This document shows positions 5,287 to 48,768 of a stretch of 64,000 bases of DNA, piece after piece. The notes under the pieces are model-generated. The model was not told the DNA's origin, did no database searches, and worked only from the letters and a program-made list of their open reading frames with translations. Position 1 is the first letter of the stretch. Each line of letters opens with the position of its first letter. The DNA comes from Flavobacteriaceae bacterium (lineage in GTDB: Bacteria > Bacteroidota > Bacteroidia > Flavobacteriales > Flavobacteriaceae), in NCBI GenBank assembly GCA_024742935.1, contig JANSXN010000003.1:4757-68756 (forward strand), given 5' to 3'. The position numbers and the translations under genes were made by a program.

Positions 5287-5368
5287 TTAGTTATTAGTTA
5301 TGGGTTAATAGTGGTTAGTAAAAATTTAAACCCTAAAACTTTTATAGTTTAGAGCCTGAACTTAAAAC
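5287..5368. repeat. Degenerate 7-nt repeat array
   Basis: TTAGTTA TTAGTTA TGGGTTA ATAGTGG TTAGTAA directly after the stop, then C-rich TAAACCC TAAAACT ... CCTGAAC TTAAAAC before the next ATG. Confidence 0.6.
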
Positions 5369-5370
5369 AC

Positions 5371-6237
5371 ATGGATACGAAAGAACTTCTAAAAAAAGTC
5401 AGAAAGATTGAAATCAAAACCCGAAGGTTGAGTGACAACCTTTTTGGTGGTGAATATCACAGTGCTTTCAAGGGAAGAGGAATGACTTTTAGTGAAGTGA
5501 GGCAGTACCAATTTGGTGATGATGTGAGAAATATTGACTGGAATGTAACGGCGCGCTACAACGAGCCCTTTGTAAAAGTTTTTGAAGAAGAACGGGAATT
5601 GACATTGATGTTACTAGTTGACATTAGTGCCTCTGAAGTTTTTGGTTCCACACAGCAATTTAAAAATGAAATTATAACTGAAATAGCCGCGACATTAGCT
5701 TTCTCTGCATTACAAAACAATGACAAAATAGGTATAGCACTTTTTACAGATCAAATTGAATTATACATTCCACCAAAAAAAGGAAAGTCACACGTGTTAC
5801 GCATCATTAGAGAATTGATTGAGTTTAAACCCAAAAGCAAAAAAACCAATATCGAGCATGCCCTTCAATTTTTAGCAAATGTGCAGAAGAAAAAAGCCAT
5901 CGCTTTTGTGCTTTCAGATTTTATTACTGATGAAAATTATGAAAGCGCTCTGAAAATAGCAGCTAAAAAACACGACCTTACCGGTATACGCATTTATGAC
6001 CCGCGTGAGGAGCAAATACCAAACCTTGGAGTTATCCAAACACAGGATGGGGAAACGGGCGAGGCGCTGCTTGTAAACACAAGCTCAAAAAAAGTGAGAG
6101 CAGCTTATTCAAAATACTATATTGAAAAAGTAAGTTTTTTCCAGGAAACTTTTCAAAAAAGCGGAGCCGGAACAATGAATTGCAGAGTTGACGAAAGTTA
6201 TGTTAAAAAATTAATGGGATATTTTAAAAGACGATAG
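5371..6237 (+). CDS. DUF58 / vWA-domain protein (MoxR partner)
   Basis: GRGMTFSEVRQYQFGDDVRNIDWNVTAR, EEERE, and MIDAS-like DISAS. Confidence 0.92.
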   Translation: MDTKELLKKVRKIEIKTRRLSDNLFGGEYHSAFKGRGMTFSEVRQYQFGDDVRNIDWNVTARYNEPFVKVFEEERELTLMLLVDISASEVFGSTQQFKNEIITEIAATLAFSALQNNDKIGIALFTDQIELYIPPKKGKSHVLRIIRELIEFKPKSKKTNIEHALQFLANVQKKKAIAFVLSDFITDENYESALKIAAKKHDLTGIRIYDPREEQIPNLGVIQTQDGETGEALLVNTSSKKVRAAYSKYYIEKVSFFQETFQKSGAGTMNCRVDESYVKKLMGYFKRR

Positions 6238-6248
6238 CCGGCAGCTTA

Positions 6249-6290
6249 TAGATACTAGATATTAGACAAAAGATTTTAGATGTTAGACAA
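6249..6290. repeat. Degenerate 7-nt repeat array
   Basis: TAGATAC TAGATAT TAGACAA AAGATTT TAGATGT TAGACAA; overlaps the called ATG at 6280. Confidence 0.7.
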
Positions 6291-7920
6291 GATAAAAAAT
6301 AGAACCATTTTTTCCAATAAGCTTCTGCTGTTGGTGTTTCTTTTTGTCTTTAGTATTCTTTTCAGTTTTTCCGGTTTCTCCCAAATCAAGGCGACGATTG
6401 ACACAACTTCAATCAAAATAGGTGAAGAAATTACGTATCACATTGAAGTTTTGACAGATTCAAGCTCAGTCGTTCTCTTTCCTGAAGGGCAGAGCTTCTT
6501 CCCGCTTGAAGTAATTGAGTTTTACCCCACAGATACCACTTTCGAAAACGAAAAAACCAAACTCATCAAAAAATATGGCCTCACACAATTTGATTCAGGC
6601 AGGTATGTGATTCCGAGTCAACTTTTACGCATCAATGAAAAGGCTTTTTATACAGATTCCTTACTTGTAGAAGTAGCAGATGTTGAAGTGGACACTTTAA
6701 AGCAACCCATGTTTGATATCAAACCTGCTATAGAGGTGCCTACTGTCAAAACTGACTGGTTAAAATACATTCTTTGGGGATTGCTTATCATTGCAATTAT
6801 AGCAGCATTGATTTATTTTATATTGCGTCAAAAGAAAAAAATTGAAGAAGCAAAAAGACAATTACCCCCTTTTGAAGAAGCACTTGTTGCTCTAAAAACT
6901 TTAGACACTTCAGGTTATCTGAAAGAAAATAAAGTCAAAGACTACTACTCATCTCTCACAGAAATTGTAAAACGCTACCTAGACCGCGAAGTCGATGATG
7001 CTGCTCTTGAAAGCACGACTGATGAATTAATTTTAAAGCTGGAGCTTCATAAAGACTCCGGTCATCTGGACTTTGACAAAGCAACTATAAACAGGCTTAG
7101 AGAAATTTTAAAACGGGCTGATTTAATCAAATTTGCCAAAATGCAAATGGAATCGGGTCAGGCTCACCTGGACAGAACAGACATTGAAGAAATCATTAAA
7201 GAAACGCACGAATCCATACCCGAGCCCACCGAAGAAGAAAAACTAAAAGACGCTCTGTATCAAGAAGAGCTTCTGAAGAAAAAGAAAAAACAAAAGCGTC
7301 TCTACATTGCAGGAGGTATTGCCTCCGTAATCATCTTTGGTTTGGGTGTCTTGTCTTTGATATTTGGTGTAAATGAAGTGAAAGACAAGGTATTTGGAAA
7401 TTATACCAGATCCCTAGTTGAACAAACCTGGATAAAAAGTGAGTATGGAAGTCCGGCAGTCATACTTGAAACCCCTGAAGTTTTGGTCAGAAAAACAACT
7501 GATGACGAATTTGTTATTACCAAAAACCTGGATGATATTTTTACGTTTGGAGACATTCAAAAGAAACTCTATATCTATGTGGGAGCAGCTAAAACTCAAG
7601 ATACAACAGCTCAAAATTTGGGAAAATTGCTTGAGGAAAAAATGGTGCTTCTAGAGGAAGCCGGAGCAACAAACCTCATCGTTATGGATGAACCTTTTAC
7701 TACTGAAAAAGGAGTTACAGGAATCAAAGCTGCAGGTGAGTTTAATATCAATTTAGGTGAGAACAAATTTAAAAAAGCAAAAAGCGACTATGAACTTGTC
7801 ATTTTTTCTCAAAATGGAAGCATTCAGGAAATCCTGATAGTCACAGAAAAAGAAGATGTCTATGCGCAACAAATTAAAGAACGTATTTTAAAATCTGTTG
7901 AAATCGAAGTTTTAAAATGA
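6280..7920 (+). CDS. Bat-cluster membrane protein (BatD-like Ig domain, DUF4381-like segment, two TM helices)
   Basis: Signal peptide, IKIGEEI...QFDSGRYVIP beta-domain, TM helix, LKFAK-like motif (LIKFAK), second TM helix; lies between DUF58 and batA. Exact start uncertain. Confidence 0.7.
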   Translation: MLDKIKNRTIFSNKLLLLVFLFVFSILFSFSGFSQIKATIDTTSIKIGEEITYHIEVLTDSSSVVLFPEGQSFFPLEVIEFYPTDTTFENEKTKLIKKYGLTQFDSGRYVIPSQLLRINEKAFYTDSLLVEVADVEVDTLKQPMFDIKPAIEVPTVKTDWLKYILWGLLIIAIIAALIYFILRQKKKIEEAKRQLPPFEEALVALKTLDTSGYLKENKVKDYYSSLTEIVKRYLDREVDDAALESTTDELILKLELHKDSGHLDFDKATINRLREILKRADLIKFAKMQMESGQAHLDRTDIEEIIKETHESIPEPTEEEKLKDALYQEELLKKKKKQKRLYIAGGIASVIIFGLGVLSLIFGVNEVKDKVFGNYTRSLVEQTWIKSEYGSPAVILETPEVLVRKTTDDEFVITKNLDDIFTFGDIQKKLYIYVGAAKTQDTTAQNLGKLLEEKMVLLEEAGATNLIVMDEPFTTEKGVTGIKAAGEFNINLGENKFKKAKSDYELVIFSQNGSIQEILIVTEKEDVYAQQIKERILKSVEIEVLK

Positions 7921-8927
7921 TGAACCCATTGCAGTTTGAATTTGTAAATCCCGAGTTTTTCTGGCTGTTTTTAGCACTGCCGGTTGCAATCGCTTGGTTT
8001 TTATGGAAGCGCAAAGAGTTAACCGCTTCTTTAAAACTATCTTCTTTGAAGGGATTTAAAACATCATCAAATTGGTTGGCCAAACTGCGCCCTCTTCTTT
8101 TTGTTTTTCGTCTTATTGCATTATCGTTGTTTATCATTGCAATGGCAAGACCCCGTTATGTTGACACCACAACGAGGATTAAAACAACCGAAGGCATTGA
8201 TATTGTGATGGCGATGGATGTTTCCGGAAGTATGCTGGCACGCGATTTAAAACCAAATAGACTGGAAGCTCTTAAAAAAGTAGCCGCAAACTTTGTAATG
8301 GAACGACCCAATGACCGCATTGGAGTGGTAATTTATGCCGGTGAAAGCTACACCCAAGTACCATTAACAACAGACAAGGCTGTGGTAGTAAATGCTATCA
8401 ATAGTATTTCCTATGGAAACACCATTGAAGATGGAACAGCTATTGGCGAAGGTCTTGCCACGGCAGTAAACCGTCTCAAAGACAGTTCCTCAGAAAGCAA
8501 AGTGGTTATTTTACTCACAGATGGAGTAAATAACACGGGCTATATAGACCCCATGATTGCGACAGAACTTGCGCTAGCTTTTGATATAAAAGTTTACGGA
8601 ATAGGTCTAGGCACCACAGGCAATGCGATGGCTCCGGTTGCTATCAATCCAAATGGCAGCTTCAGGTATGCAAATATTCCGGTTGTAATTGATGAAGATT
8701 TATTAAAAGAAATATCCAAAGCAACAGGAGGAACGTATTTTAGAGCAACCAGCACCTCAAAACTTGAAGAAGTGTATGAAGAAATAAACAAACTTGAAAG
8801 AACAGAAATTGAAGAATTTCAATACACCAGTTTTGAAGAACTCTTTCGCATTTTTGTTCTATGGGGTAGCGCCTTTTTGCTAATTGAAATTCTATTAAGA
8901 TTTACTTTATTTAGAAGTTTTGTATAA
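7917..8927 (+). CDS. batA: vWA-domain protein BatA
   Basis: FxNPxxFWL BatA N-terminus, MIDAS DVSGSM, GTAIG, LLTDG. Confidence 0.92.
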   Translation: MMNPLQFEFVNPEFFWLFLALPVAIAWFLWKRKELTASLKLSSLKGFKTSSNWLAKLRPLLFVFRLIALSLFIIAMARPRYVDTTTRIKTTEGIDIVMAMDVSGSMLARDLKPNRLEALKKVAANFVMERPNDRIGVVIYAGESYTQVPLTTDKAVVVNAINSISYGNTIEDGTAIGEGLATAVNRLKDSSSESKVVILLTDGVNNTGYIDPMIATELALAFDIKVYGIGLGTTGNAMAPVAINPNGSFRYANIPVVIDEDLLKEISKATGGTYFRATSTSKLEEVYEEINKLERTEIEEFQYTSFEELFRIFVLWGSAFLLIEILLRFTLFRSFV

Positions 8928-9964
8928 TGTATCAATTTGAAGACACTACATATTTTATAGTACTTGCAGTCATACCGCTGTTAATAGTCGTGTATCTGAT
9001 TTTTACAGTATGGAAAAACCGCGCTCAAAAAAACTTTGCTCAGAGGGAAGCTCTCAATAGATTGAGCCCTTCCAAATCAACATTTAAAAGCATTTTAAAA
9101 CTCACTTTGGTTTGCCTTGCGTTCTTTTTATTGGTAATAGCACTTGTCAATCCAAGAATTGGCACCAAAACCGAAGAAATTAAACGGGAAGGTGTTGATG
9201 TAGTATTTGCTATTGATGTTTCCAAAAGTATGCTCGCAGAAGACATTGCTCCCAACAGGCTTGAAAAATCAAAACAAATCGTCAACCAGTTGCTCAATAA
9301 ACTGGGTGGTGACAGGGTGGGTATTATTGGATATGCCGGAAGTGCATTCCCCCAATTGCCCATCACAACAGATTATAATGCTGCACGAATGTTTTTAAGT
9401 GCAATGAATACAGAGATGGTTTCTTCTCAGGGCACAGCTATTGCAGAAGCCATTGAATTATCAAAAACCTATTTTGATCAGGAAAACCCCACCAGCAAAG
9501 TATTAATCATCATCTCTGACGGGGAAGATCATCAGGGAAATGCAACAACCATTTCTACTGAAGCTTCAAATCAAGGTATTAAAATAATCTCAATCGCAGT
9601 GGGAAAAACTTCAGGTGGTCCCATACCAATTAAAAGAAATGGCATTCTGCAGGAATATATGCGAGACAGCAATGGAGAGCGTGTCATCACCCGAATGGAA
9701 GAGGATGTACTCAGAGAAGTCGCTACAAAAACCGAGGGTCTGTTTCTCTATGGCGAAATCACTTCAGATGTTGTTGAGGAAGTCTCAAAATTCTTAAACA
9801 CATTAGATAAAGAAGCCTTTGATTCAGTTCAATTTTCTGAATTTAAAAATCAGTTTCAATGGTTTCTGGGCGTGGCGTTGCTACTTTTGTTTATTGATAT
9901 ATTTCTTTTAGAGAGAAAGACTTTCTGGCTAGAGAAGTTGAACCTTTTTAATGAAAAGAAATGA
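8927..9964 (+). CDS. batB: vWA-domain protein BatB
   Basis: MIDAS DVSKSM, QLPITTD, ISDGEDH; translationally coupled to batA. Confidence 0.9.
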   Translation: MYQFEDTTYFIVLAVIPLLIVVYLIFTVWKNRAQKNFAQREALNRLSPSKSTFKSILKLTLVCLAFFLLVIALVNPRIGTKTEEIKREGVDVVFAIDVSKSMLAEDIAPNRLEKSKQIVNQLLNKLGGDRVGIIGYAGSAFPQLPITTDYNAARMFLSAMNTEMVSSQGTAIAEAIELSKTYFDQENPTSKVLIIISDGEDHQGNATTISTEASNQGIKIISIAVGKTSGGPIPIKRNGILQEYMRDSNGERVITRMEEDVLREVATKTEGLFLYGEITSDVVEEVSKFLNTLDKEAFDSVQFSEFKNQFQWFLGVALLLLFIDIFLLERKTFWLEKLNLFNEKK

Positions 9965-10770
9965 TGAAAAAGCAAGTCCTTTATATAGCACTCTTGGTTT
10001 TCTCTTTTGCATTTTCACAAACAAAAGAGCAAGAGACTCTCGCTAAAGAAAATCAGGAGCTTTTATCTCAAGCTCAAAAAAACATTGAAAAAGGTGATTT
10101 TGCTTCCGCGGAAGCGAAATACAGAAAAGTAATTGGCCGTGACCCAAAAAACACCGAAGCCAAATATAACTTAGGAAACCTCTATTATAGTATGGGCAAA
10201 AGTAATGAAGCTCAAAAACGCTACATACAAGCAATTGAAACCGCCCAGTCAAAGTCTGAAAAACACAAGATTTACCACAACCTGGGAAATGTGTTTATGA
10301 ACGAAAAACAATACCGCCCGGCCGTTGAAGCTTATAAAAATGCGTTGCGAAACAACCCAACAGATGATGAAACGAGGTACAATTTAGCTTTAGCCAAAAA
10401 AATGCTGGAAGAACACGGTGATGACGGTGGAGGCGGTGATGATCAAAATGAGGAAAATCAAGACGAAAAACAAGAAGGCGATAACGAAGAAGAACAGGAC
10501 CAGGGTGATGAAGGAAATGAAAATGAAGACAAAGGTGATGAAGGAGATGATGATGAACAAGATGCTCCTGAAAAAGATGAGGAAGGTGAACCCAAAGAGC
10601 CTCAAGATGGTGAAGAAGATGGAACTCCTCAACCCAGAGAAGGAAAGCTTTCTCCCCAACAAATTCAAAGCTTGCTTGAAGCCATGAACAATGAAGAGAA
10701 AAAAGTTCAGGATAAAATAAATGCTGAAAAACAAAAAGGAGCCAAAGTAAAGCCTGAAAAAGACTGGTAA
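9961..10770 (+). CDS. batC: TPR protein BatC with an acidic low-complexity linker
   Basis: Signal peptide, TPRs (YNLGN, HNLGN, RYNLA), D/E/Q/G-rich tract, C-terminal KDW. Confidence 0.9.
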   Translation: MMKKQVLYIALLVFSFAFSQTKEQETLAKENQELLSQAQKNIEKGDFASAEAKYRKVIGRDPKNTEAKYNLGNLYYSMGKSNEAQKRYIQAIETAQSKSEKHKIYHNLGNVFMNEKQYRPAVEAYKNALRNNPTDDETRYNLALAKKMLEEHGDDGGGGDDQNEENQDEKQEGDNEEEQDQGDEGNENEDKGDEGDDDEQDAPEKDEEGEPKEPQDGEEDGTPQPREGKLSPQQIQSLLEAMNNEEKKVQDKINAEKQKGAKVKPEKDW

Positions 10771-10819
10771 ATAGAGTAGTAAGAATTGAGTATTAAGTAT
10801 TAAGAATAAAGTGTTTAGG
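10771..10819. repeat. Degenerate 7-nt repeat array
   Basis: ATAGAGT AGTAAGA ATTGAGT ATTAAGT ATTAAGA ATAAAGT GTTTAGG starting at the first base after the batC stop. Confidence 0.7.
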
Positions 10820-10978
10820 CTTTATAAAATCAATTAAAACCAATAAAATATTTCGCCATTAACTAATCTCCTTTTGTCTTAAAATGAGCTTTTTATGAAT
10901 TTTTTTAATTTTTTTAAGTAAAAATTAATATGATTGTATGAAATTGAGTTTTACATTCGCACTTGCTCATATTGTACA

Positions 10979-12754
10979 ATGAAAACAAGATTAATATTCA
11001 CAACACTGCTCTTTCTGCTTGCAAGCCCATTGTTTGCACAGGTAAGCTTTGTTGCTAAGGTAAGCAAAGAAAAACTAGGCGTAAATGAGCGTTTGCGTGT
11101 AGATTTTGAGATGAATCAGGATGGAGATAACTTTCAACCTCCTCAATTTACTGGATTCAAAGTGGTTGCAGGACCCAACCAATCGGTTAGCAATATGTGG
11201 ATTAATGGAAAGCGCACCTATTCTAAAACCTTTAGTTACTTTTTATCTCCCACAGCCAGAGGCACTTTTACCATAGGACAAGCATCCATTGAAATTGATG
11301 GCGAAATTTATAAAACGGTTCCCATTAATGTTGAAGTTGGCGCTGCAGTTGACACCCCAAAAGACGGTGACAATATAGACATTGCTTCTCAGGGTGACCT
11401 CCATCTGGTTGCTGAAATATCAAAAGCAAGCCCTTATCTCAACGAGGCAATCACTGTTGTTTACAAGCTTTACTTTTCTCCTGAAACATCTATTAGTGGT
11501 TACAGAGTGATAGACAATCCCACTTTTGCTGACTTCTGGAGTCAAAACATCGACAACAATCAAATCCAGGTACAGGAAGGCACTTATCAAGGAAAACCCT
11601 ATTTATATACCATTTTGAGGAACACCTTATTGTATCCTCAAAAAACAGGAAAAATTCAAATTGAACCTCTTTCGCTTGATGTACAGTTACAAGTGAGAAC
11701 AAACAGAAGAGATATTTTTGGGCGACCTTTTATGACCCGAACAAACAGAACGCTCTCTTCTGTAAATAGAACCATAGACGTCAAGCCTCTGCCACTTGAC
11801 GGCCAACCGGCAAATTTTTCTGGAGCTGTTGGCACATTTAATTTAGATGTAAAAACAAGCAAAACAAAACTTGATGCCAGAGAATCTCTGGAATTAACTG
11901 TTGAAATTTCAGGTACAGGAAACTTAAAGCTTTTCAGACCTCCTTCAATAACATCCCCAACTACTTTTGAAGTGTATGAGCCTGAGTTCATTGATCGTGT
12001 TACCACTACTCAATCAGGCATGAGAGGTTCTATTTCTGAGAACTATACCTTGGTCCCCCAGTTTCAGGGAGATTATACAATTGACCCTGTTATTTTCAGC
12101 TATTTTGATCCCACTTCAGGTAGCTATAAAACCATCACTTCCGGTGAACTCTTGATTGAGGTGGAACAAGGCCCTGTGGCAAGTACACCAGCTGCCGGTA
12201 CTGGTTCTCAAGCTGTATATAGACAACCAGTTGTCATGGCAAATGAGCAATTTAAGTATATCAAGTTAGATGCAAACCTTAAAGCAATTGACAGTCCGCG
12301 CTTTTTTAATTCTGTTGCGTTTTGGTCACTTTTTACCGGACCGTTGTTGCTTATCCCATTGTTTATTTTCATAGGAAGAAAACAAAAAAATCTTCAGGCA
12401 GATATCGCAGGACAACGACTCAAAAAAGCAAACAGACTGGCCAAAAAGTATCTTTCTGAAGCTAAGAAAAACAGAGGAAATCAAGCCCATTTCTATGATG
12501 CCCTTGAGCGTGCCTTGCACAACTATCTCAAAGCAAAATTATCGATAGAGACTTCAGATTTCTCCAAAGAACGCATTGAAGGAATTTTACTGGACAGACA
12601 AGTCTCTTCACAAGCAAGCTCAGATTTTATTGCATTACTAAAGAGCTGTGAGTATGCAAGATATACCCCAACTACAGAAGGAGCTATCCAGCTTGATTAT
12701 GATAAAGCTGCAGAGGTAATTTCTACTATTGATAAACAAATTAAAAAGGCATGA
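10979..12754 (+). CDS. batD: BatD family protein
   Basis: Signal peptide, repeated Ig-like BatD domains, GAVG motif, C-terminal TM helix and KCEYARY-like tail (SCEYARY). Start moved to ATG 10979. Confidence 0.9.
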   Translation: MKTRLIFTTLLFLLASPLFAQVSFVAKVSKEKLGVNERLRVDFEMNQDGDNFQPPQFTGFKVVAGPNQSVSNMWINGKRTYSKTFSYFLSPTARGTFTIGQASIEIDGEIYKTVPINVEVGAAVDTPKDGDNIDIASQGDLHLVAEISKASPYLNEAITVVYKLYFSPETSISGYRVIDNPTFADFWSQNIDNNQIQVQEGTYQGKPYLYTILRNTLLYPQKTGKIQIEPLSLDVQLQVRTNRRDIFGRPFMTRTNRTLSSVNRTIDVKPLPLDGQPANFSGAVGTFNLDVKTSKTKLDARESLELTVEISGTGNLKLFRPPSITSPTTFEVYEPEFIDRVTTTQSGMRGSISENYTLVPQFQGDYTIDPVIFSYFDPTSGSYKTITSGELLIEVEQGPVASTPAAGTGSQAVYRQPVVMANEQFKYIKLDANLKAIDSPRFFNSVAFWSLFTGPLLLIPLFIFIGRKQKNLQADIAGQRLKKANRLAKKYLSEAKKNRGNQAHFYDALERALHNYLKAKLSIETSDFSKERIEGILLDRQVSSQASSDFIALLKSCEYARYTPTTEGAIQLDYDKAAEVISTIDKQIKKA

Positions 12755-13500: not shown

Positions 13501-13547
13501 GTTTTTAAAATTATTATTATTTTAACAGTAATATTCTTCAGCCTGTT

Positions 13548-17289: not shown

Positions 17290-17390
17290 ACCAATTTCCA
17301 AATTCCAAAATCTTTTAACTTAAAAACTCAACACCCAACATCCAGCGCCCAACAATACTTCAAACTTTGTACCTCTAAGCTCGTACTTCT
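17290..17390. repeat. C-rich compound 7-nt periodic array
   Basis: ACCAATT TCCAAAT TCCAAAA; TCAACAC CCAACAT CCAGCGC CCAACAA; TACTTCA AACTTTG TACCTCT AAGCTCG TACTTCT. Confidence 0.6.
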
Positions 17391-17404
17391 AAAATAATAT
17401 TTAA

Positions 17405-17412
17405 TAAATTTG
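17405..17412 (+). promoter_or_regulatory. Bacteroidota -7 element for pheS
   Basis: TAAATTTG, 23 nt upstream of the ATG. Confidence 0.6.
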
Positions 17413-17435
17413 CCCTCAGATAAATCGCAATAAGG

Positions 17436-22289: not shown

Positions 22290-22363
22290 GGGGATGTAGC
22301 TCAGTTGGCTAGAGCGCTTGGCTGGCAGCCAAGAGGTCGTGGGTTCGAATCCCATCTTCTCCA
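22290..22363 (+). tRNA. tRNA-Ala (anticodon GGC)
   Basis: Cloverleaf GGGGATG...CTTGG-CTGGCAG-CCAAG...GTGGGTTCGAATCCCAT CTTCTCC A; G3:U70 alanine determinant; CCA not encoded. Confidence 0.96.
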
Positions 22364-28033: not shown

Positions 28034-28062
28034 AAATTCCAAATTTAAAAATTCCAAATTCC
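28034..28062. repeat. Degenerate 7-nt repeat array
   Basis: AAATTCC AAATTTA (A) AAATTCC AAATTCC on the + strand, i.e. TTGGAAT repeats on the coding strand between osmC-like and recJ. Confidence 0.55.
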
Positions 28063-39629: not shown

Positions 39630-39711
39630 TACCTTGGGTGGGAATCGAACCCACACGTCCGAGGACACAGGATTTTGAATCCAGCGCGTCTACCAATTCC
39701 GCCACCAAGGC
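39630..39711 (-). tRNA. tRNA-Leu (anticodon CAA)
   Basis: Minus strand GCCTTGGTGGCGGAATTGGTAGACGCGCTGGA-TTCAAAA-TCCTG, long variable arm, GTGGGTTCGATTCCCAC, CCAAGGT A; TAATTTTG promoter box at 39732-39739. Confidence 0.95.
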
Positions 39712-40806: not shown

Positions 40807-40812
40807 TAAAAG

Positions 40813-40866: not shown

Positions 40867-40889
40867 AACCTATATAACAAACAAAAATA

Positions 40890-41549: not shown

Positions 41550-41576
41550 ATTTTCAATGCATTTTGAATTTATAAG

Positions 41577-41603
41577 AAACCCCCACAAGTTGGGGGTTTT
41601 TTT
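41577..41603 (+). terminator. Terminator after rplY
   Basis: AAACCCCCA/TGGGGGTTT stem followed by a T-run. Confidence 0.8.
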
Positions 41604-41624
41604 ATATTTTTACAAAAAAAACAA

Positions 41625-42257: not shown

Positions 42258-42261
42258 TTCA

Positions 42262-43197
42262 GTGAAAGTCCACCATTCCATAACAGATTATAAAAACAAC
42301 TCCCAATCTGTCATCACCATTGGCACTTTTGATGGTGTTCACATAGGCCATCGAGAAATCCTGAAAAAACTCACTTCAGAAGCTGAAAAACTCAATCTGG
42401 AATCGGTAATACTTACTTTTTTTCCCCATCCGCGTATGGTTCTACAAAAAGAAAGCAACATCAAACTCATCAACACCATAGATGAACGTGTTTCCATTTT
42501 TTCAAAAACAGAGCTCGATCACCTCATTATTCATCCGTTTACAAAAGAATTTGCAAACCTTTCGGCGGAAGCCTTTGTGAAAAATATTCTGGTTGAAAGT
42601 TTAAATGTTAAAAAAATAATCATTGGTTATGACCACCGTTTTGGAAAAAACCGAAGTGCCAACATTGACGATCTGAAAAAATTTGGCAAATTATACCATT
42701 TTGAAGTTCAGGAAATATCAGCGCAAGAGCTAGATGATGTTGCTGTGAGTTCAACCAAAATTAGAAAAGCATTGGACCGTGGTGACGTAGAAACTGCAAA
42801 TAATTACCTGAGTTACCCCTTTATGCTCAACGGTACTATTGTAAAGGGAAAAGGAATTGGTAAAACCATCAACTTCCCCACCGCAAACCTGCACATTGAA
42901 GAATCCTACAAACTCATACCAAAAAATGGGGTCTATGTTGTGAAAGCTGTTATAGAAAACGAGGAAGTTTTTGGAATCATGAGCATAGGCACCAACCCCA
43001 CCGTTGGTGGGAAAAACAGAACTATTGAAACCTATTTCCTGGATTTTGAAAAAGACCTCTATGGTAAAAAAATTACTGTTGAAATGCTTTCAAAAATCAG
43101 AGAAGAAGCTACTTTTGACTCTTTGGAGTCCTTGCAATTTGCTATTAAAAATGACGAGGCTTTCGCCCGAAAATACATAGCCGGCTATGATGAATAA
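42262..43197 (+). CDS. ribF: Bifunctional riboflavin kinase / FAD synthetase
   Basis: GTFDGVHIGH, GYDHRFG, SSTKIR and FPTAN. Confidence 0.96.
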   Translation: MKVHHSITDYKNNSQSVITIGTFDGVHIGHREILKKLTSEAEKLNLESVILTFFPHPRMVLQKESNIKLINTIDERVSIFSKTELDHLIIHPFTKEFANLSAEAFVKNILVESLNVKKIIIGYDHRFGKNRSANIDDLKKFGKLYHFEVQEISAQELDDVAVSSTKIRKALDRGDVETANNYLSYPFMLNGTIVKGKGIGKTINFPTANLHIEESYKLIPKNGVYVVKAVIENEEVFGIMSIGTNPTVGGKNRTIETYFLDFEKDLYGKKITVEMLSKIREEATFDSLESLQFAIKNDEAFARKYIAGYDE

Positions 43198-44506
43198 AAT
43201 TCTTTTTAAACACATCGACAATAGCGGACTTATCATTTTTAGGGTCGTTTTTGGTTTATTGATTACTCTGGAAGCCTTTGGCGCTATCGCGACAGGATGG
43301 GTGAGACAAGTACTTGTTGAACCTGCATTCACTTTTTCGTTTATTGGTCTTGAGTGGTTGCAACCGCTTCCCGGGAATGGAATGTACTTTTATTTTGCCG
43401 TGATGGGAATTTTTGGATTGATGGTGATGCTGGGTTTTAAATACCGGCTTGCCATAATTGCATACTTAGTGATGTGGGCCGGCGTCTATTTTATGCAAAA
43501 ATCGGCTTACAACAACCATTATTACTTGATGCTTTTGTTACTGGGTTTTATGAGTGTGCTTCCGGCAAACAGGTGGTTTTCGCTTGACGCGAAATACAAT
43601 CCGGAAATCAAAAATCCCTCCATGCCCCAATGGTGTGCGTTAGTGATTATTCTTCAGGTTTGGATTGTTTATACCTATGCCTCTATTGCAAAACTGTATC
43701 CTGACTGGCTTGATGCCTCAATGGCGCAAATACTCATGAGTGGAAAGGCCAACTACTGGTTAATAGGGGATGTTTTACAACAACCCTGGGTGCATTGGTC
43801 AATCGCTTACACCGGCATTTTATTTGATTTGCTTATTGTTCCTCTTTTGCTATGGAAACGCACACGAATGCTGGGGTTTGTCATTTCTATATTTTTCCAT
43901 TTGTTCAATTCCATCGTTTTTCAAATTGGTATTTTTCCCTATATGTCCATTGCTTTTGCCTTGTTTTTCTTTACTCCGAAAACTGTGCAAAGACGTTTTT
44001 TGCCCAAAAAGGAATTCTATGACAAAGCAGAAATTATCGTTCCTGCATATAAAAAAACACTCATTACGCTTTTTTCAATTTATTTTATCATTCAGGTTGG
44101 GTTACCCCTGCGACACTGGGCTATACAAGACAATGTACTCTGGACTGAAGAAGGACACCGCCTCAGTTGGCGCATGATGTTGCGCACTAAATCTGGTTCA
44201 GTCAAAGTAACCGTCAAAGATAAAAACACCCAGGAGGAGTTTCGTGTAAACATCTATGACGAACTCTCAACCAAACAACGAAGAGGCCTAGCCACAAAGC
44301 CTGACTATATGTGGCAATATGCACAGCGATTAAAAAAACGCTATGCAGAAGAAGGCAAGGATGTTGCTGTTTATTTTGATGCCCGGGTGAGTGTAAACAA
44401 AAGACCTATGGCTCCATTGATAAATCCCGAAGTGGATCTCGCGGCAGAAAAATGGAATCATTTCAAACACCACGACTGGATTCTACCGGCGCCGGAGGGG
44501 TTGTGA
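43187..44506 (+). CDS. HTTM-domain protein, vitamin-K-dependent gamma-carboxylase homologue
   Basis: NNHYYL, YASIAKLYPDW and WTEEGHRLSWRMML; 11-bp overlap with ribF. Confidence 0.85.
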   Translation: MMNKILFKHIDNSGLIIFRVVFGLLITLEAFGAIATGWVRQVLVEPAFTFSFIGLEWLQPLPGNGMYFYFAVMGIFGLMVMLGFKYRLAIIAYLVMWAGVYFMQKSAYNNHYYLMLLLLGFMSVLPANRWFSLDAKYNPEIKNPSMPQWCALVIILQVWIVYTYASIAKLYPDWLDASMAQILMSGKANYWLIGDVLQQPWVHWSIAYTGILFDLLIVPLLLWKRTRMLGFVISIFFHLFNSIVFQIGIFPYMSIAFALFFFTPKTVQRRFLPKKEFYDKAEIIVPAYKKTLITLFSIYFIIQVGLPLRHWAIQDNVLWTEEGHRLSWRMMLRTKSGSVKVTVKDKNTQEEFRVNIYDELSTKQRRGLATKPDYMWQYAQRLKKRYAEEGKDVAVYFDARVSVNKRPMAPLINPEVDLAAEKWNHFKHHDWILPAPEGL

Positions 44507-44582
44507 TAAAACTTTCTTTTGTTCTAAAAAATAAGCTGCCTTTTAGGCTATTTCACTAAATTTGCCCTTTCAAACCAACACT

Positions 44583-45854
44583 ATGTTACAAGTTACAGAC
44601 ATTCGCGACCACAAAGAGGCTTACATTGCCGCTTTGCAAAAAAGAAATTTTAATGCTACCCCTCTTTTTGAGGAGGTATTGCAGGCAGATGAAACCCGAA
44701 GAAGTACCCAGGCAAAACTCGATAACATCCTGGCCGAGTCCAATAAAATTTCGAAGGAAATAGGGATTCTTTTTAAAAGCGGAAATACCCAAAAAGCGAA
44801 TGAATTGAAAGATCAAACAGCCCAATTCAAAGAAGATTCCAAAGTACTTCAGGATGAATTGAACAAGGCGGTTGAAATCTTGCAACAATTGCTTTACAAT
44901 ATCCCAAACATCCCAAATTCACTGGTTCCTGCAGGAAGCAGTGAGGATGATAACGAAGAAGTTTATCGCGCAGGCGACATCCCAAAACTGGCAGACGGCG
45001 CACTCCCCCACTGGGAACTCGCCAAAAAATATGACATCATCGATTTTGAACTGGGCAATAAAATCACGGGAGCCGGTTTTCCGGTTTATAAAGGAAAAGG
45101 TGCCAGATTGCAACGCGCTTTAATTGCTTACTTTCTCGATAAAAACACCGCTGCTGGATATACTGAATATCAAGTGCCACATTTAGTAAATGAAGCCTCC
45201 GGTTTTGGAACAGGGCAATTGCCGGACAAGGAAGGACAAATGTACCATGTCACTGAAGACAACCTCTACCTGATTCCCACTGCCGAAGTGCCGGTGACAA
45301 ACATGTTTCGGGACGAAATCCTTCAGGCAAAAGACCTGCCGGTTTTGTGTACAGGCTACACACCTTGTTTCAGGAGAGAAGCAGGAAGTTATGGTGCCCA
45401 CGTGCGTGGTTTGAATCGTTTGCACCAATTTGATAAAGTGGAAATCGTGCGAATTGAGCATCCCTCAAACTCATACAAAGCCCTTGACGGAATGGTGGAA
45501 CACGTGAAAGAAATCCTTAACGAACTCCAACTTCCTTACCGCATCTTAAGACTTTGTGGTGGTGATTTGGGCTTTACCTCAGCCCTTACCTATGATTTTG
45601 AAGTATTTTCAACCGCACAAGACCGCTGGCTGGAAATTTCTTCAGTATCCAATTTTGAAACCTTTCAGGCCAACCGATTGAAACTGCGCTTCAAAGATGA
45701 AAACGGAAAAAACCAACTGGCACACACCTTGAACGGAAGTGCCTTGGCACTACCCAGAGTACTTGCCGGAATTCTGGAAAACTACCAAACCCCTAATGGC
45801 ATTAAAATTCCTGAGGTGTTGGTGCCTTATACAGGTTTTACAGTTATTGATTAA
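44583..45854 (+). CDS. serS: Serine--tRNA ligase
   Basis: LIPTAEVP, FRREAGS, HQFDKVE and HTLNGSALA; TAAATTTG promoter box at 44557-44564. Confidence 0.98.
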   Translation: MLQVTDIRDHKEAYIAALQKRNFNATPLFEEVLQADETRRSTQAKLDNILAESNKISKEIGILFKSGNTQKANELKDQTAQFKEDSKVLQDELNKAVEILQQLLYNIPNIPNSLVPAGSSEDDNEEVYRAGDIPKLADGALPHWELAKKYDIIDFELGNKITGAGFPVYKGKGARLQRALIAYFLDKNTAAGYTEYQVPHLVNEASGFGTGQLPDKEGQMYHVTEDNLYLIPTAEVPVTNMFRDEILQAKDLPVLCTGYTPCFRREAGSYGAHVRGLNRLHQFDKVEIVRIEHPSNSYKALDGMVEHVKEILNELQLPYRILRLCGGDLGFTSALTYDFEVFSTAQDRWLEISSVSNFETFQANRLKLRFKDENGKNQLAHTLNGSALALPRVLAGILENYQTPNGIKIPEVLVPYTGFTVID

Positions 45855-45860
45855 ACCGTT

Positions 45861-45893
45861 AACCCTTTCAGGGTTTCAAACCTTGAAAGGGTT
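45861..45893. repeat. REP-like long palindrome / bidirectional terminator
   Basis: AACCCTTTCAGGGTTT-C-AAACCTTGAAAGGGTT: 16-nt arms with one G-T pair. Confidence 0.6.
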
Positions 45894-45900
45894 GGGATAA

Positions 45901-46701
45901 TTATTTCTTTATAAATTTTCTCGTGGTTAAATTCCCATTTTCACTTTCAAAAACCACAAAATACAGACCTTCATTAAGCTTACTTACATCTATTAGTGAT
46001 TGCCCTGCTTTGACTAGGAGGCTTTGCTGGAGTTTTCCAGTTATGTCATATAGCGTAGCAACTACATCTTGATTGAAGATATTATTGATGAATACGTTTT
46101 CTTTAGCTGGGTTGGGGTACAAGGTAAAACTGTTATGATGAAAAGATGGTGTTGAAAGAAAAGCTGTTCGATATATCAACCAGTCACCATTTGCATTAAT
46201 TATTTTTAAATCATCCACAGGAAATTGAGTTTCTATCCATTCATAAGTAAAAGGATTTTTGGGTGTGCTATTGGTATCAAAGGGCAAATTAAAATAAAAA
46301 CTTTGATAAAGCTCCACAGCTTCAATTTCATCTGGGTCTGTATAGTTACAGGAAACATAGTCGAAGATAGTACTTAAATTAAAACTCGTCTCAGTAACAT
46401 CAATATAATTGACTTTAAAAGATTCAAAACAACTTACACCATAATAGTGTTGAAAAAAATCATCATTATGAGGAGAATAAAAAATTGGTGTGCCAGAATT
46501 TTCAAGAGAAATTGAAACACCATTCACACTTGACTCTTCCAACCACCATTCAGAGTTTAGCAAAAAATCACTGGTTTGAGCTTTGACACTCTGCCCAAAA
46601 CCTTGAAAAGTATCTGGAGCAAGAGATCCAATGGAGGGTAACAAAAAGAGTAGAGTTACAAACTTTAAAAGTTTTATTTTTAAATTGATTATCGTTTTCA
46701 T
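45901..46701 (-). CDS. T9SS type-A sorting domain protein with an uncharacterised N-terminal domain
   Basis: Signal peptide and C-terminal LYPNPAK...LYDITGK...GLYFV...KFIKK CTD. Confidence 0.85.
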   Translation of the reverse strand: MKTIINLKIKLLKFVTLLFLLPSIGSLAPDTFQGFGQSVKAQTSDFLLNSEWWLEESSVNGVSISLENSGTPIFYSPHNDDFFQHYYGVSCFESFKVNYIDVTETSFNLSTIFDYVSCNYTDPDEIEAVELYQSFYFNLPFDTNSTPKNPFTYEWIETQFPVDDLKIINANGDWLIYRTAFLSTPSFHHNSFTLYPNPAKENVFINNIFNQDVVATLYDITGKLQQSLLVKAGQSLIDVSKLNEGLYFVVFESENGNLTTRKFIKK

Positions 46702-46949
46702 AACAGTTGGTTTTTATTGTTTCATTAAATTTTTAGATCCTTGAATTTCAAGACTAAAGATTAAAATTAGTTAAAATTAATTAAAGAACCTTATTGCTAT
46801 CTATCTTTATTTACCTTATGAAAATACGCCAAGCATTCTTTTAAAAAATTTATGCTTTGCTTTAACGTTGTGAATTTTATCAAGTACTTAACAAATTTAT
46901 AACTAGATTACCAATCCACATTTTGCTATATTTACCAAAAAGTAACAAA

Positions 46950-48731
46950 ATGCGTTTTACCCTTTGCCTTCTAATCTTTTGCTTTGGCATGGTTTCTTTC
47001 TCTCAAAATGAGAACCTGGCTAAAAACTATTTTGACAGGGGTGATTTTGAAAAAGCCTTGCCCATTTACAGAGCCCTTTTTGAAAACAATCAAAACCGCA
47101 ACGACTATTTTCTTTCATACATCGCTACGCTTCAACAGCTTGAAAATTTTGAAGAAAGTCAAAAACTACTTCAGGAACGACTCACATTAACCAGAAATCA
47201 CCCCTTGTTTTTAATTGAAATGGGAAGAAACCATCTCATTCAAAATCAAAGTGAAGAAGCAAACTCCTATTTTCAACAAGCACTACAGGCCATTGATGAA
47301 AACCCGAGAATAACTTATACAGTTGCCAATTCTTTTGAAAAATACAGTTTGCTGGACCTGGCGGTAAGTGCCTATGAAAAAGGAGCTTCACTTGACGAAA
47401 ATCTCAATTTTGACAGTCAGTTGGCGCGTATTTATGGTGAGCAGGGCGAGTTGGAGAAAATGTTTGACAGTTATTTGAGGATTATTGAAAGAAATCCCTC
47501 GTTTTTAATCTCTGCGCAGCGCAATTTTAGTCGATATGTGACAGATGACCCTCAAAATGAGGCCAATGATTTGTTGCGCAAGGCACTTTTGAGGCGCTCT
47601 CAAAACAATCCTGACTTATTTTACAATCAGTTACTCAGTTGGTTGTTTGTACAGCAAAAACAATATGACAGAGCCTTTATACAAGAAAAAGCCATTTTCA
47701 ACCGCACCTTTGAAAGCCTAAATGAAATGATGGAATTGGCATTAATTGCCCTCGACGATGAAGCGTATGAAGTATCAAACGAAATTTTATCTTACATAAT
47801 CGAAAATAGTACTTCAGAGAGAGACCGCCTTCAGGCCTTTCAATACGCTATGAAAATTGAAGCAAAAACGGCAAAAAAAGAAAACTTCGCTGAGGTAGAA
47901 AAAAAATATCAAAATTTGATTGGACTCTTTGGAGAAGACACCAAGACTTTTGAAATACAGCTCGATTACTATCACTTTTTGGCTTTTCAGAACAATAAAA
48001 AGCAAATTGCCGTTGAAAATCTTAAAAAATTAAGTCGTGAGAATCTGAGTAGGTATCAAGAAGCCCGGGTTTTAATGCAACTAGCAGATATACTGGTGTT
48101 TGATGAAAAGTTTAATGAAGCGCTCATTTACTATTCACAAATTCAGAATAAAGTTAAAAATGATCCCATAGCACAGGAAGCCCGTTTTAAAGTAGCCCGC
48201 ACAAGTTATTTTAAAGGAGATTTTGAATGGGCCAAAACACAGCTTGACATCCTAAAAAAATCAACTTCCCAACTCATTGCAAATGATGCGATGGAGCTCA
48301 GTTTGCTCATCAGTGACAACTCACTGGAAGACAGCTTGCAAACCGCACTAAAAAAATATGCGCGAGCAGATCTGTTGGACTTGCAAGGAAAACATCAGGA
48401 GGCCATTGCCATTCTGGAAACTATTTTAGGCAATCACATAGGAGAGTCAATAGAAGATGAAGCTTTACTCAAACAAGCACAGGTATTTGAAAAGACAAAC
48501 CAATATGATAAAGCAAAAGATAATTATCTAAAGATAATAGAGTTTCACAACGAAGATATCCTGGCAGATAACGCCTATTTTTACCTCGCAGAATTGTACA
48601 ACAAAACCCTTCAACAACCTGAAAAAGCAAAAGAATTCTATGAGCAAATCATTTTTAACCATCAGGATTCCATCTTTTTTGTAGAAGCCCGAAAACAATA
48701 CCGAAGCATAAGAGGGGACGCAATTAATTAG
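46950..48731 (+). CDS. Periplasmic tetratricopeptide-repeat protein
   Basis: Signal peptide and many TPR helices. Start moved to ATG 46950. Confidence 0.85.
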   Translation: MRFTLCLLIFCFGMVSFSQNENLAKNYFDRGDFEKALPIYRALFENNQNRNDYFLSYIATLQQLENFEESQKLLQERLTLTRNHPLFLIEMGRNHLIQNQSEEANSYFQQALQAIDENPRITYTVANSFEKYSLLDLAVSAYEKGASLDENLNFDSQLARIYGEQGELEKMFDSYLRIIERNPSFLISAQRNFSRYVTDDPQNEANDLLRKALLRRSQNNPDLFYNQLLSWLFVQQKQYDRAFIQEKAIFNRTFESLNEMMELALIALDDEAYEVSNEILSYIIENSTSERDRLQAFQYAMKIEAKTAKKENFAEVEKKYQNLIGLFGEDTKTFEIQLDYYHFLAFQNNKKQIAVENLKKLSRENLSRYQEARVLMQLADILVFDEKFNEALIYYSQIQNKVKNDPIAQEARFKVARTSYFKGDFEWAKTQLDILKKSTSQLIANDAMELSLLISDNSLEDSLQTALKKYARADLLDLQGKHQEAIAILETILGNHIGESIEDEALLKQAQVFEKTNQYDKAKDNYLKIIEFHNEDILADNAYFYLAELYNKTLQQPEKAKEFYEQIIFNHQDSIFFVEARKQYRSIRGDAIN

Positions 48732-48733
48732 AA

Positions 48734-48768
48734 AACTCACCTCTCACAACTAATTACTAATAACTACT
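48734..48768. repeat. Degenerate 7-nt repeat array
   Basis: AACTCAC CTCTCAC AACTAAT TACTAAT AACTACT, ending at the base before ATG 48769. Confidence 0.65.

Follow-up and report, generated by a model that had tools for sequence, protein, structure and literature searches.

The STRR repeats of cyanobacteria are heptamers. TAACTGA heptamers, reported from Beggiatoaceae, cyanobacteria and five Bacteroidetes, have been viewed as possible regulator-binding sites in a study that mentions four-helix-bundle or intervening-sequence genes zero times (MacGregor 2015, PMC4679880). Open reading frames (ORFs) of the S23p family have been described inside intervening sequences (IVSs) of 23S rRNA in Coxiella burnetii, Leptospira, Brucella and Xanthomonas, and cleavage of the IVS stem by RNase III has been demonstrated in Coxiella, where a variable number of tandem GACAGAT heptamers adjoins the ORF (PMC4990558). 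The S23p protein was described as a homopentameric toroid by Lin et al. (2006), as cited in PMC4990558.

We compared with these systems six intergenic arrays of 7-nt units (Table 1) located in a stretch of 64,000 nucleotides from a Flavobacteriaceae genome, hereafter the window (C107:4757-68756). Identity at lag 7 was 0.55-0.77 in the six regions against approximately 0.30-0.35 in shuffles, lag 14 was also elevated, the remaining lags were at background, and each region was significant (p<=0.004) relative to the best of lags 3-15 in shuffled sequence. The 7-nt periodicity described by the original prediction was therefore real, but its description as "strict" was overstated, since the six arrays consist of degenerate units, went undetected by a stringent match/mismatch run-score and gave only short cores in TRF. 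Five arrays exceeded the genome-wide lag-7 threshold, the exception being 5287-5368. When checked against ORF coordinates, all six adjoin a stop or start codon, and the names moxR, TPR genes, BatD, OsmC and DUF4286 in the window were confirmed by Pfam. The arrays do not qualify as intrinsic terminators (G+C-rich hairpin with a T-run) or sigma-70 promoters (-35/-10 hexamers): no terminator-like site overlapped any of them, and site counts equalled shuffle expectation. An Rfam scan of the window returned two tRNAs and nothing else.

Table 1. Period-7 arrays of the window, with units on the coding strand, placement and predicted folding.
Array	Position	Strand	Units	Lag-7 identity	Placement	Structure
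moxR/DUF58 spacer	5287..5368	+	G-containing TTAGTTA TTAGTTA TGGGTTA ATAGTGG TTAGTAA at ~5287-5321, then C-containing (AACCCTA AAACTTT ...)	0.55 (p<0.001)	begins 1 nt past moxR stop; second half extends to DUF58 ATG at 5371	no self-complementarity in this genome, fold z=+0.38
DUF58/next	6249..6290	+	G-containing TAGATAC TAGATAT TAGACAA AAGATTT TAGATGT TAGACAA	0.66	begins 12 nt past DUF58 stop; overlaps called ATG of next ORF at 6280	
post-TPR (batC-like)	10771..10819	+	G-containing GAGTAGT AAGAATT GAGTATT AAGTATT AAGAATA AAGTGTT	0.64 (lag 14, 0.74)	begins 1 nt past TPR/batC stop	less folded than shuffles, z=+1.67
pre-pheS	17290..17390	+	~14 C-containing heptads in three families: AAATTCC; CCCAACA; GTACTTCTAA	0.55	between 118-aa ORF stop (11 nt before array) and pheS promoter box	unstructured, MFE -1.5 kcal/mol, z=+1.38
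osmC-like/recJ	28034..28062	-	GGAATTT GGAATTT TTAAATT TGGAATT	0.77	within 50-nt osmC-like/recJ spacer, ending 5 nt ahead of recJ-side start	
TPR/DUF4286	48734..48768	+	C-containing CTCACCT CTCACAA CTAATTA CTAATAA CTACT	0.68	whole 37-nt TPR/DUF4286 spacer	none predicted, MFE 0

A scan of the whole genome (windows of 35 comparisons with at least 22 matches) bore out a general period-7 signal. It recovered 134 intergenic regions at lag 7, compared with 11-32 at lags 2-6, 8-13, 15 and 16, and 91 at the harmonic lag 14; coding DNA gave 25 regions at lag 7, which is background. This intergenic excess indicated that the six arrays are not a selection artefact. G-containing units had been said to follow stop codons and C-containing units to precede start codons, and this polarity is a statistical tendency rather than a rule. 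Among co-directional spacers, the stop-proximal arrays comprised 33 with G>C and 17 with C>G, whereas the start-proximal ones comprised 28 with C>G and 11 with G>C (Fisher p=6e-4); five of the six window arrays conform, and 28034-28062, a G-type array ahead of a start codon, runs against it. Array-bearing spacers as a group were not more folded than others (z<-2 in 27% vs 35%).

Nine TIGR02436 four-helix-bundle (4HB) genes were found in this genome, none of them in the window; this family (TIGR02436/PF05635) is S23p, the "23S rRNA intervening-sequence protein" family. The 4HB profile matches XCC0516 (PDB 2gsc) at 9e-35, the family matches NF033474 (Avd) under its cut-off, and two solved family members, PDB 2gsc and 2rld, contain five chains each. 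All nine genes follow a host stop codon and precede the next start codon, and all nine are enclosed by a pair of tandem arrays that are inverted, complementary to each other and directly adjacent to these codons, with a period of 7 (8 in two cases), about 4-6 units per arm and a unit sequence unlike at every locus. A complete cassette runs from the host stop through a G-containing array (about 4-6 heptads) and a short A-rich leader to the 4HB ORF, and from there through a reverse-complementary C-containing array to the host start. When 1318 testable genes were ranked by flank complementarity, 4HB genes took 7 of the top 11 places, and an array was detected in 12/18 4HB flanks vs 5.6% of all gene flanks (p ~1e-11). 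In-frame stops occur in one of the nine resident 4HB ORFs and in about 1/10 of those listed in relatives. A gene for RNase III is present, and an RVT_1 reverse transcriptase was not found in the 99%-complete assembly.

The original prediction had also stated that heptads flank TIGR02436 genes in Bacteroidota operons, and this proved correct well beyond the resident loci. Such flanks were present at most of the 29 4HB genes in other genera of the family. In a cross-phylum set of 80 4HB loci from Bacteroidota, Clostridia, Planctomycetota, Ignavibacteria, Betaproteobacteria and one CPR genome, flank complementarity exceeded the 95th percentile of the null in 55, the best lag was 7 in 31/38 upstream and 38/47 downstream flanks, and the 5' arm was G>C in 51/54 cassettes. 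The cassette architecture, its polarity and its recurrence across phyla are thereby shown.

These cassettes share with the 23S rRNA IVSs the cargo family (by the XCC0516 match), an ORF placed in the loop of a stem made by terminal inverted repeats, and frequent decay of that ORF, and they share with the Coxiella IVS variable-number tandem heptamers adjoining the ORF. Unlike the IVSs, they sit between protein-coding cistrons rather than in an rRNA helix (all arrays and all nine cassettes of this genome lie between protein-coding genes, with none inserted in a 23S rRNA helix), their arms are tandem over the full length with a locus-specific unit, the 5' arm is consistently G-containing, gene-less arrays outnumber complete cassettes about 14-fold in this genome, and cleavage by RNase III, demonstrated for the IVS, is here presumptive. 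The TAACTGA-type repeats are likewise tandem, 7 nt long and intergenic, often few nucleotides from start codons; they occur in sporadic lineages including Flavobacteriia such as Gramella and Aequorivita, with several unit families within one spacer (PMC4679880). The arrays described here differ from them in their many degenerate units, their complementary G/C pairs and their tie to 4HB genes. Head-to-tail 7-nt intergenic units with a copy number that varies among close relatives are also a property of LSSR/STRR repeats, although the window units are far more degenerate than those of classical SSRs. As in MITE-type non-autonomous derivatives of inverted-repeat elements, gene-less inverted-repeat hairpins coexist with cargo-bearing copies, and the two have their arms and type of site in common; unlike MITEs, the cassettes have no transposase, evident target-site duplication or conserved terminal sequence, and their sole conserved feature is complementarity between the arms of one locus.

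Presence and absence of the cassette could be compared at two junctions of a fatty-acid operon, fadB/thiolase and thiolase/ACAD (names presumed from position and first residues rather than from a family scan), in 30 loci from 30 genera, G000 included. A 4HB cassette was detected in 8 loci at each junction, two further thiolase/ACAD gaps (L071 and L077) held cargo without identification, and the remaining loci carried gene-less heptad hairpins of the same arm family or bare spacers of 5-30 nt. Occupied cassette, empty hairpin and bare spacer are therefore three states of one junction. The well-supported part of the 4HB tree requires two or more origins at each of the two junctions, and 4HB clades track arm families, not junctions, with GAATCAAGA arms at either junction and the two cassettes swapped in G014. 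This showed co-inheritance of 4HB clade and arm family, and the 4HB gene and its arms appear to move together.

Co-occurrence of 4HB genes with a period-7 excess was shown among seven genomes, which belong to one family and are not independent. Lag-7 arrays per 400 kb numbered 24 in G000 and, with 12 4HB genes in the genome, 11 in G024; in four 4HB-free genomes they numbered 1, 7, 7 and 1 and did not rise above neighbouring non-coding lags, all lags being low in the 4HB-free G029. G005 has five 4HB genes yet no clear lag-7 excess. Within the present genome, 44% of 124 solo arrays have at least two 10-mers in common with resident cassette arms vs 11% of column-permuted controls.

At those junctions of the window that were inspected, the expectation that relatives would carry inserted small genes was not supported. 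Across 29 other genera, neither the moxR/DUF58, the DUF58/next nor the pheS junction contained a 4HB gene, and the first two contained none in 12 congeners either; among about 150 4HB positions in an incomplete list, none was near the DUF4286 ortholog. The pheS-junction array was itself absent from the 29 other genera, which have a short spacer with TAAATTTG instead. In this genome, the six window spacers (37-160 nt) contain no 4HB ORF between arms and no mutually complementary arms, their folding being no better than that of shuffles (z=-1.0 to +1.7). The moxR/DUF58 spacer had been likened to an empty cassette with both halves; the halves are non-complementary here, but 16/27 spacers of other genera at this junction fold with z<-2 and 13/27 show period 7, the hairpin units being non-homologous sequences across genera. 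These hairpins include those of G050 and G029, two genomes without a detectable 4HB gene, which implies that hairpins can persist, or arise, without it.

Considering these results, we propose that the six arrays are gene-less remnants, orphaned or decayed arms of gene-in-hairpin 4HB cassettes, within a population of about 130 arrays that would all be cassette arms, paired or orphaned, and we assign this reading a probability of roughly 0.6. In a polycistronic transcript, the arms would pair into an imperfect stem of 25-40 bp with the ORF as its loop. By analogy with the Coxiella IVS, RNase III may cut this stem, which would free the 4HB message and end the coupling of the cistrons on either side. 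Cassettes would be acquired, change place and disappear; where the ORF or one arm went missing, gene-less hairpins and solo arms would remain, and both would then drift, shift in unit number by slippage and evolve as simple repeats. Both the placement of the window arrays beside stop or start codons and the order of G-containing before C-containing units would be a legacy of cassette design, and the remnant reading is supported by the cassette polarity that solo arrays display. The protein-binding or RNA-processing roles offered as alternatives by the original prediction are compatible with this cassette reading. The lack of a 4HB gene in the window and at the orthologous junctions inspected, the unstructured window spacers, the unremarkable folding of array-bearing spacers as a group, the moxR/DUF58 hairpins without 4HB genes, the absence of a clear excess in G005, the small and non-independent set of seven genomes and the failure to find an RVT_1 reverse transcriptase are points against it.

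The recurrent moxR/DUF58 hairpins, with non-homologous units and never a 4HB gene, would also be expected if heptad arrays and hairpins were intercistronic RNA elements with their own function and the 4HB genes were secondary colonists of hairpin loops, as in rRNA helix loops. Such elements might be unstructured G-poor leaders ahead of start codons (Bacteroidota initiate translation without Shine-Dalgarno pairing), coupling or processing hairpins between cistrons, or Rho-loading sites rich in C and poor in G. The polarity puts C-containing, G-poor sequence right ahead of start codons, and the one-type window arrays fold worse than shuffles (z=+1.4 to +1.7), being unusually unstructured; the 100-nt array at 17290 (34% C, 4% G), with a stop before it and a promoter box after it, may resemble a Rho-loading site. 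However, a generally useful element would be expected in the 4HB-free genomes of the family too, and these have no period-7 excess; moreover, arrays are gained and lost among congeners (3 to 8 units), the pheS array is confined to this genome in the comparison with 29 genera, and 4HB gene and arms appear to travel jointly, so that we regard an independent function as unlikely. Variable unit number among congeners would suit ordinary slippage-prone SSRs arising from a general heptanucleotide bias and unrelated to 4HB genes, with placement and polarity produced by selection against G-rich sequence before start codons. Heptanucleotides are the commonest long SSR class according to Mrazek et al. 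(2007), as cited in PMC4679880, and intergenic heptamer repeats in a few Bacteroidetes were noted there without a 4HB link. This explanation is very improbable, because it leaves unaccounted for the locus-specific complementary arms around all nine 4HB genes, the three states of one junction with arm families in common, the lack of excess in related 4HB-free genomes of similar G+C and the units that solo arrays share with cassette arms.

That sharing of unit families, together with the tracking of 4HB gene presence by arrays among genomes, would be explained differently if the arrays were cis or trans binding sites of pentameric 4HB proteins, each protomer occupying one heptad, with a paralogue-specific unit family and the gene-less arrays as a regulon. 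The approximately 4-6 units per arm and the pentameric solved members fit this, as does the relationship to the nucleic-acid-binding DGR protein Avd, tentative as it is with a match under cut-off; the strand polarity of the arms would be superfluous for a plain RNA stem and would suit single-strand recognition. On the other hand, binding is not known for any family member, no resident 4HB gene carries arms of the abundant unit families TAGAYWW and GTTTCAA/TTGAAAC, and plain linkage would just as well lead to co-inheritance of clade and arm family, which makes binding sites in this sense rather improbable. A broader possibility, which we offer tentatively and hold to be somewhat doubtful, is that the arrays are recognition elements of a widespread, undescribed class of small mobile or selfish elements, in which a pentameric 4HB protein would recognise the 7-nt repeats of its own arms in a strand-specific way (G-containing strand 5') and direct the spread, maintenance or processing of cassettes into operon junctions and rRNA helices, orphan arrays being landing sites or a regulon. 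If true, this would account for the long-standing heptanucleotide excess in bacteria, including the cyanobacterial STRRs, and for the origin of ORF-bearing rRNA intervening sequences. An unexplained 4HB protein family is in any case now tied to an unexplained bacterial excess of 7-base repeats.

Returning to the remnant reading, the suggestion that the arrays are footprints of a cassette found partial support: unit families and the gene-less hairpins at the two fatty-acid junctions agree with it, but no occupied ortholog was seen at the three inspected junctions, and we infer the footprint status of the six from sequence resemblance. By eye, the unit family of each window array reappears as a cassette arm, resident or in a relative. 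The 5' array of 5287..5368 is kept, by substitution, in about 5/12 congeners. The array at 6249 has about 5-6 units in G000, 8 in G066 and 3 in G065 and is missing from other congeners, and its TAGAYWW family forms the arms of 4HB cassettes in other genera beside a gene that is presumably pseudouridine-synthase-like, judged from its first residues. The family at 10771 matches the arms of resident cassette C103:23630 (TATTAAG) and of L067 and L074, and two of the three families at 17290 match those of resident cassettes C11:23134 and C82:14868. The array at 48734 corresponds, on the opposite strand, to the TAGTTAT/AGTAGTTAG family, which supplies 4HB arms in L066 and L067, and the GGAATTT/AAATTCC family of 28034-28062 recurs both in the C11:23134 cassette arms and in many further arrays of the genome.

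Nine genes in G000, the genome that holds the window, matched TIGR02436, the profile of the four-helix-bundle (4HB) family (PF05635), also called S23p or 23S rRNA intervening-sequence (IVS) protein, and none of the nine lay in the window. All nine were tightly placed between the stop codon of the preceding gene and the ATG of the following one, with a tandem array on either side whose units are reverse-complementary to those of the other, among them the arm pairs TATTAAG.../...CTTAATA, CGGGTGA.../...TCATCGG, TACGAAG TTAGAAG.../...CTTCTAA CTTCGTA and TTGATTA.../...TCAATAG. One of the complete cassettes spans C103:23,580-24,045. Heptad repeats at the flanks of such genes had been proposed in the original prediction, and the flanks bore this out, with an arm period of 7 in seven cassettes and 8 in two. 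The arm unit was different at all nine loci; therefore, the conserved feature is complementarity, not sequence. The upstream arm was the G-containing one in eight of the nine. By a blind criterion, 12 of 18 4HB flanks carried an array, versus 5.6% of all gene flanks (p ~1e-11). When flank complementarity was scored for the 1318 genes having usable flanks, the 11 best scores included seven 4HB genes and two GxxExxY (TIGR04256) genes. We had also considered that arrays might pair across any neighbouring gene, which was rejected since only the 4HB genes and these two GxxExxY genes stood out.

Of 29 4HB loci examined in the family's other genera, nearly all had the same layout of host stop, G-containing array, 4HB ORF, C-containing array and host start. 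A profile scan with one genome per species yielded 80 loci from Bacteroidota, Clostridia, Planctomycetota, Ignavibacteria, one Betaproteobacterium and one CPR bacterium. In 55 of these 80 loci, flank complementarity was above the 95th percentile of mismatched-flank controls, and in 36 it was above the 99th; where flanks were strongly periodic, the period was 7 in 31/38 upstream and 38/47 downstream, the remainder being mostly 8. On the 4HB sense strand, G outnumbered C within the 5' arm of 51 of 54 informative cassettes, a polarity that a plain RNA stem would not require.

The fadB-thiolase-ACAD operon, whose genes were named from position and first residues rather than by family scan, holds 4HB genes at both junctions in G000. 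Comparison of 30 loci (G000 and 29 other genera) revealed three junction states: occupied, the gap then measuring 430-520 nt, with a detected 4HB cassette in eight loci at each junction; a gene-less hairpin of 70-110 nt, in which a short loop separates a G-array from its complementary C-array; and a bare spacer of 5-30 nt. Two occupied thiolase/ACAD gaps (L071 and L077) carried cargo other than a detected 4HB gene. The gene-less hairpins shared unit families with occupied cassettes of other genera at the same junction (AGAACCAAGA/TCTTGATTC, TAGAAAATAGA/TCTATTCTC and GAGTATTGAG/CTCAATACT). The stem of occupied cassettes extends to the start and stop codons of the ORF, so that the ORF is exactly the loop, and two-arm mini-constructs had folding energies of -16 to -37 kcal/mol. 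A tree of 40 4HB proteins grouped by junction (7 label changes versus 13.4 in shuffles), and its well-supported branches required at least two origins per junction. The clades tracked arm families: the GAATCAAGA-arm clade was found on the upstream side of the thiolase gene in G014 but on its downstream side in four other genomes (G007, G004, G008 and G057), and the AGTAGTTAG-type-arm clade had the opposite arrangement. As clades follow arm families at either junction, gene and arms appear to travel as one unit. In several genera, the place of the heptad hairpin is taken by another, G+C-rich element of paired small hairpins, for example CCCCACCTAACCTCCCC..GGGGAGG and GTCCCTCTCCTTTGGAGAGGGATATAGGGAGAGGAAA, which ends directly at the downstream ATG; it recurs at fad junctions (L079, L088) and at moxR/DUF58 (L012 and L027, and in the congeners L125, L126, L129 and L134).

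The original prediction had described strict 7-nt periodicity at six window sites. The period was confirmed, with a lag-7 identity (the share of bases equal to the base 7 positions on) of 0.55-0.77 versus 0.30-0.35 in shuffles; the strictness was not, as the units are degenerate. Lag 14 was likewise elevated, the remaining lags were at background, and the observed lag-7 value was matched by 0 to at most 4 of 1000 shuffles, even against the best of lags 3-15. Tandem Repeats Finder recognized cores of just 2.7-5.4 copies, and a stringent lag-match run score (+1/-2) returned no period-7 segments; the arrays being too degenerate for it, this score was replaced by windowed lag identity. Because the six sites had been picked by eye, the whole genome (2.63 Mb, 130 contigs, 37% G+C; gene map from a crude ORF call) was scanned with a criterion that was fixed and identical for all lags, its threshold itself being arbitrary. 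This autocorrelation scan, suggested earlier as a check, revealed an intergenic excess of period 7, with 134 regions versus 11-32 at other lags, the harmonic lag 14 excepted; in coding DNA lag 7 was unremarkable. Five of the six window arrays were recovered, and the unit families were many, including AGTGTTC (x15), CACCCGT (x20), AAATTCC (x10), TTAGATG (x7) and TTAAGTA (x8).

Coordinates of arrays and other features in the window and elsewhere in G000
Feature	Sequence	Position (strand)	Lag-7 identity
Heptad array	window	5287-5368	0.55
Heptad array	window	6249-6290	0.66
Heptad array	window	10771-10819	0.64
Heptad array	window	17290-17390	0.55
Heptad array	window	28034-28062	0.77
Heptad array	window	48734-48768	0.68
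ORF as called	window	6280-7920	
First ~35 residues of this ORF	window	6280-6385	
Low-complexity tail of TPR (batC-like) gene	window	10415-10580	
TAAATTTG(C) box upstream of pheS (other genera: L093-L121)	window	17400-17435	
tRNA gene	window	22290-22363 (+)	
tRNA gene	window	39630-39711 (-)	
4HB gene at thiolase/ACAD junction	C103	25307-25624	
GxxExxY gene	C13	19494-19898 (-)	
GxxExxY gene	C103	37235-37609 (-)	
GxxExxY gene	C24	23679-24029 (-)	

Gene-less arrays outnumbered cassettes by over 10:1 in G000, and three tests indicated that, as a class, they belong to the cassettes. In 44% of 124 solo arrays, at least two exact 10-mers were shared with hand-delimited arms of the nine resident cassettes, compared with 11% of column-permuted controls that retain composition and periodicity; a first test with 8-mers and 75-nt flanks had been uninformative, and the high A/T-rich background was the reason for redoing it in this way. 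The polarity of solo arrays was that of cassettes. Furthermore, in a comparison of 400-kb samples, which is small and whose members are not independent, G000 had 24 lag-7 regions versus 4-8 at other lags and G024, with twelve 4HB genes, had 11 versus 1-5, while the four genomes of the family without a TIGR02436 match (G048, G035, G050 and G029) had 1, 7, 7 and 1. In these four, lag 7 was not above neighbouring non-coding lags, and G029 was low at every lag. G005, with five 4HB genes in 5.2 Mb, had no clear lag-7 excess. The sample from G048 (L222-L241) had 37 period-9 regions versus 0-7 at other lags, which may be coding repeats.

As originally claimed, all window arrays abut a stop or start codon according to ORF coordinates, and the gene names given to their neighbours stand. 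The claimed polarity, G-containing units after stops and C-rich units before starts, was a real tendency genome-wide (33:17 G:C arrays near stops versus 11:28 near starts; Fisher p=6e-4) and not a strict rule. Arrays occurred in 3.8% of divergent spacers, about half the frequency in co-directional (9.2%) and convergent (9.5%) ones, and this rarity fits transcribed DNA, not promoter DNA. No intrinsic terminators, sigma-70 promoters or known RNA families were recognized at the arrays; two tRNA genes were the sole Rfam matches in the window. A stop codon in all three frames as the defining property was rejected, being only mildly enriched (31% of array-bearing 3' regions versus 21% of shuffles and 17% of other spacers). 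Array spacers are also not hairpins in general: array-bearing co-directional spacers were no more folded than others, none of the six window spacers folded better than shuffles, and window arrays of one type were less structured than shuffles.

The spacer between moxR and DUF58 in other genera was significantly folded in 16/27 cases and period-7 in 13/27, with units varying by genus (CAGTxxx/xxxACTG, GTTCAAG/CTTGAAC, GATTTxx/xxAAATC). The inserted 4HB gene predicted for relatives at this junction was found in 0 of 29 genera, two of which carried other insertions. Hairpins at this junction in genomes without 4HB genes show that hairpins can persist after the gene is gone or form in its absence. 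The 5' array of G000 there had substitution-type conservation in about 5 of 12 congeneric species, tandem-array alignments being ambiguous. In three close species the array after DUF58 had 3, about 5-6 and 8 units, and the rest of the genus lacked it, which is ordinary repeat dynamics. This array overlaps the called ATG of the next ORF, so it is uncertain where the ORF truly starts or how far the non-coding repeat reaches; the first ~35 residues are unconserved beyond the closest congeners, and alignments begin at residue 35. For annotation, called start codons can thus be overlapped by arrays, and operons split by inserted cassettes. The 100-nt C-rich array before pheS was absent in the 29 genera examined, which retained a spacer of ~40 nt with a conserved TAAATTTG box. 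In nearly all of them, the TAAATTTG(C) box precedes the pheS ATG by ~20-30 nt. It resembles TAnnTTTG, the Bacteroidota -7 promoter element, and by this likeness pheS is probably driven by its own promoter, the C-rich array probably lying within the upstream gene's 3' region. At the DUF4286 junction, a coordinate comparison found no 4HB gene near the ortholog among the listed positions, a list that is incomplete. Just 5' of one heptad array, the TPR (batC-like) gene encodes an acidic, lysine-rich low-complexity tail with periods of 9, 12 and 15 nt, for example TGATGAAGGAAATGA in 3.5 copies. The six window arrays are best called orphaned or decayed arms, on the basis of class membership rather than of an occupied ortholog.

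The closest documented system for the cassettes is the ORF-bearing 23S rRNA IVS, in which the loop contains an S23p ORF, preceded by tandem heptamers (GACAGAT) whose number varies between strains, and the 5' cut falls at the first repeat (PMC4990558). The gene-in-hairpin design of the Coxiella IVS is that of the cassettes, here at operon junctions. The 4HB profile matched Xanthomonas S23p (PDB 2gsc) at 9e-35, and 2rld as well; the Xanthomonas protein forms a homopentameric toroid built from four-helix bundles (PMC4990558), and a putative reading of about five heptads by one pentamer is attractive. Given this likeness, and as G000 encodes RNase III, we propose that the arms would pair within the operon transcript and be cut by RNase III, so that the 4HB message would be freed and the cistrons on either side separated. 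Retro-mobility by a resident reverse transcriptase found no support, as G000 had no RVT_1 match.

Heptamer repeats, intergenic and near start codons, have been reported for Beggiatoaceae, cyanobacteria and five Bacteroidetes, with heptanucleotides as the commonest long simple repeats, and neither was tied to 4HB genes (PMC4679880). In the open-access literature we found no description linking 4HB genes to heptad repeats outside rRNA. We know of no accepted explanation for heptanucleotide tandem repeats in bacteria, and to our knowledge no function is assigned to PF05635/TIGR02436, a very large family with solved structures. ORF-bearing rRNA IVSs have been described as selfish elements of obscure origin. 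We regard the cassette as an IVS-like element that sits at operon junctions and has a large halo of gene-less arrays. The heptad arms, near-universal strand polarity, excess of gene-less arrays and lack of a period-7 excess in 4HB-free relatives make the case, in G000 and in agreement with the comparisons of relatives, that the 4HB family, heptanucleotide repeats and rRNA IVSs may be one subject.

The 4HB gene at the thiolase/ACAD junction of G000 has an in-frame TAA and keeps long, well-matched arms; stops were also present in about one-tenth of the 4HB matches listed for relatives. The three GxxExxY genes of G000, of ~125-135 aa, lie outside the window. The two with top-ranking flank complementarity have repeat flanks of their own, of non-heptad type, and at the gene on C13 either flank forms a hairpin, the flanks being direct copies of each other. 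The pattern suggests a second family of small genes inserted at junctions.
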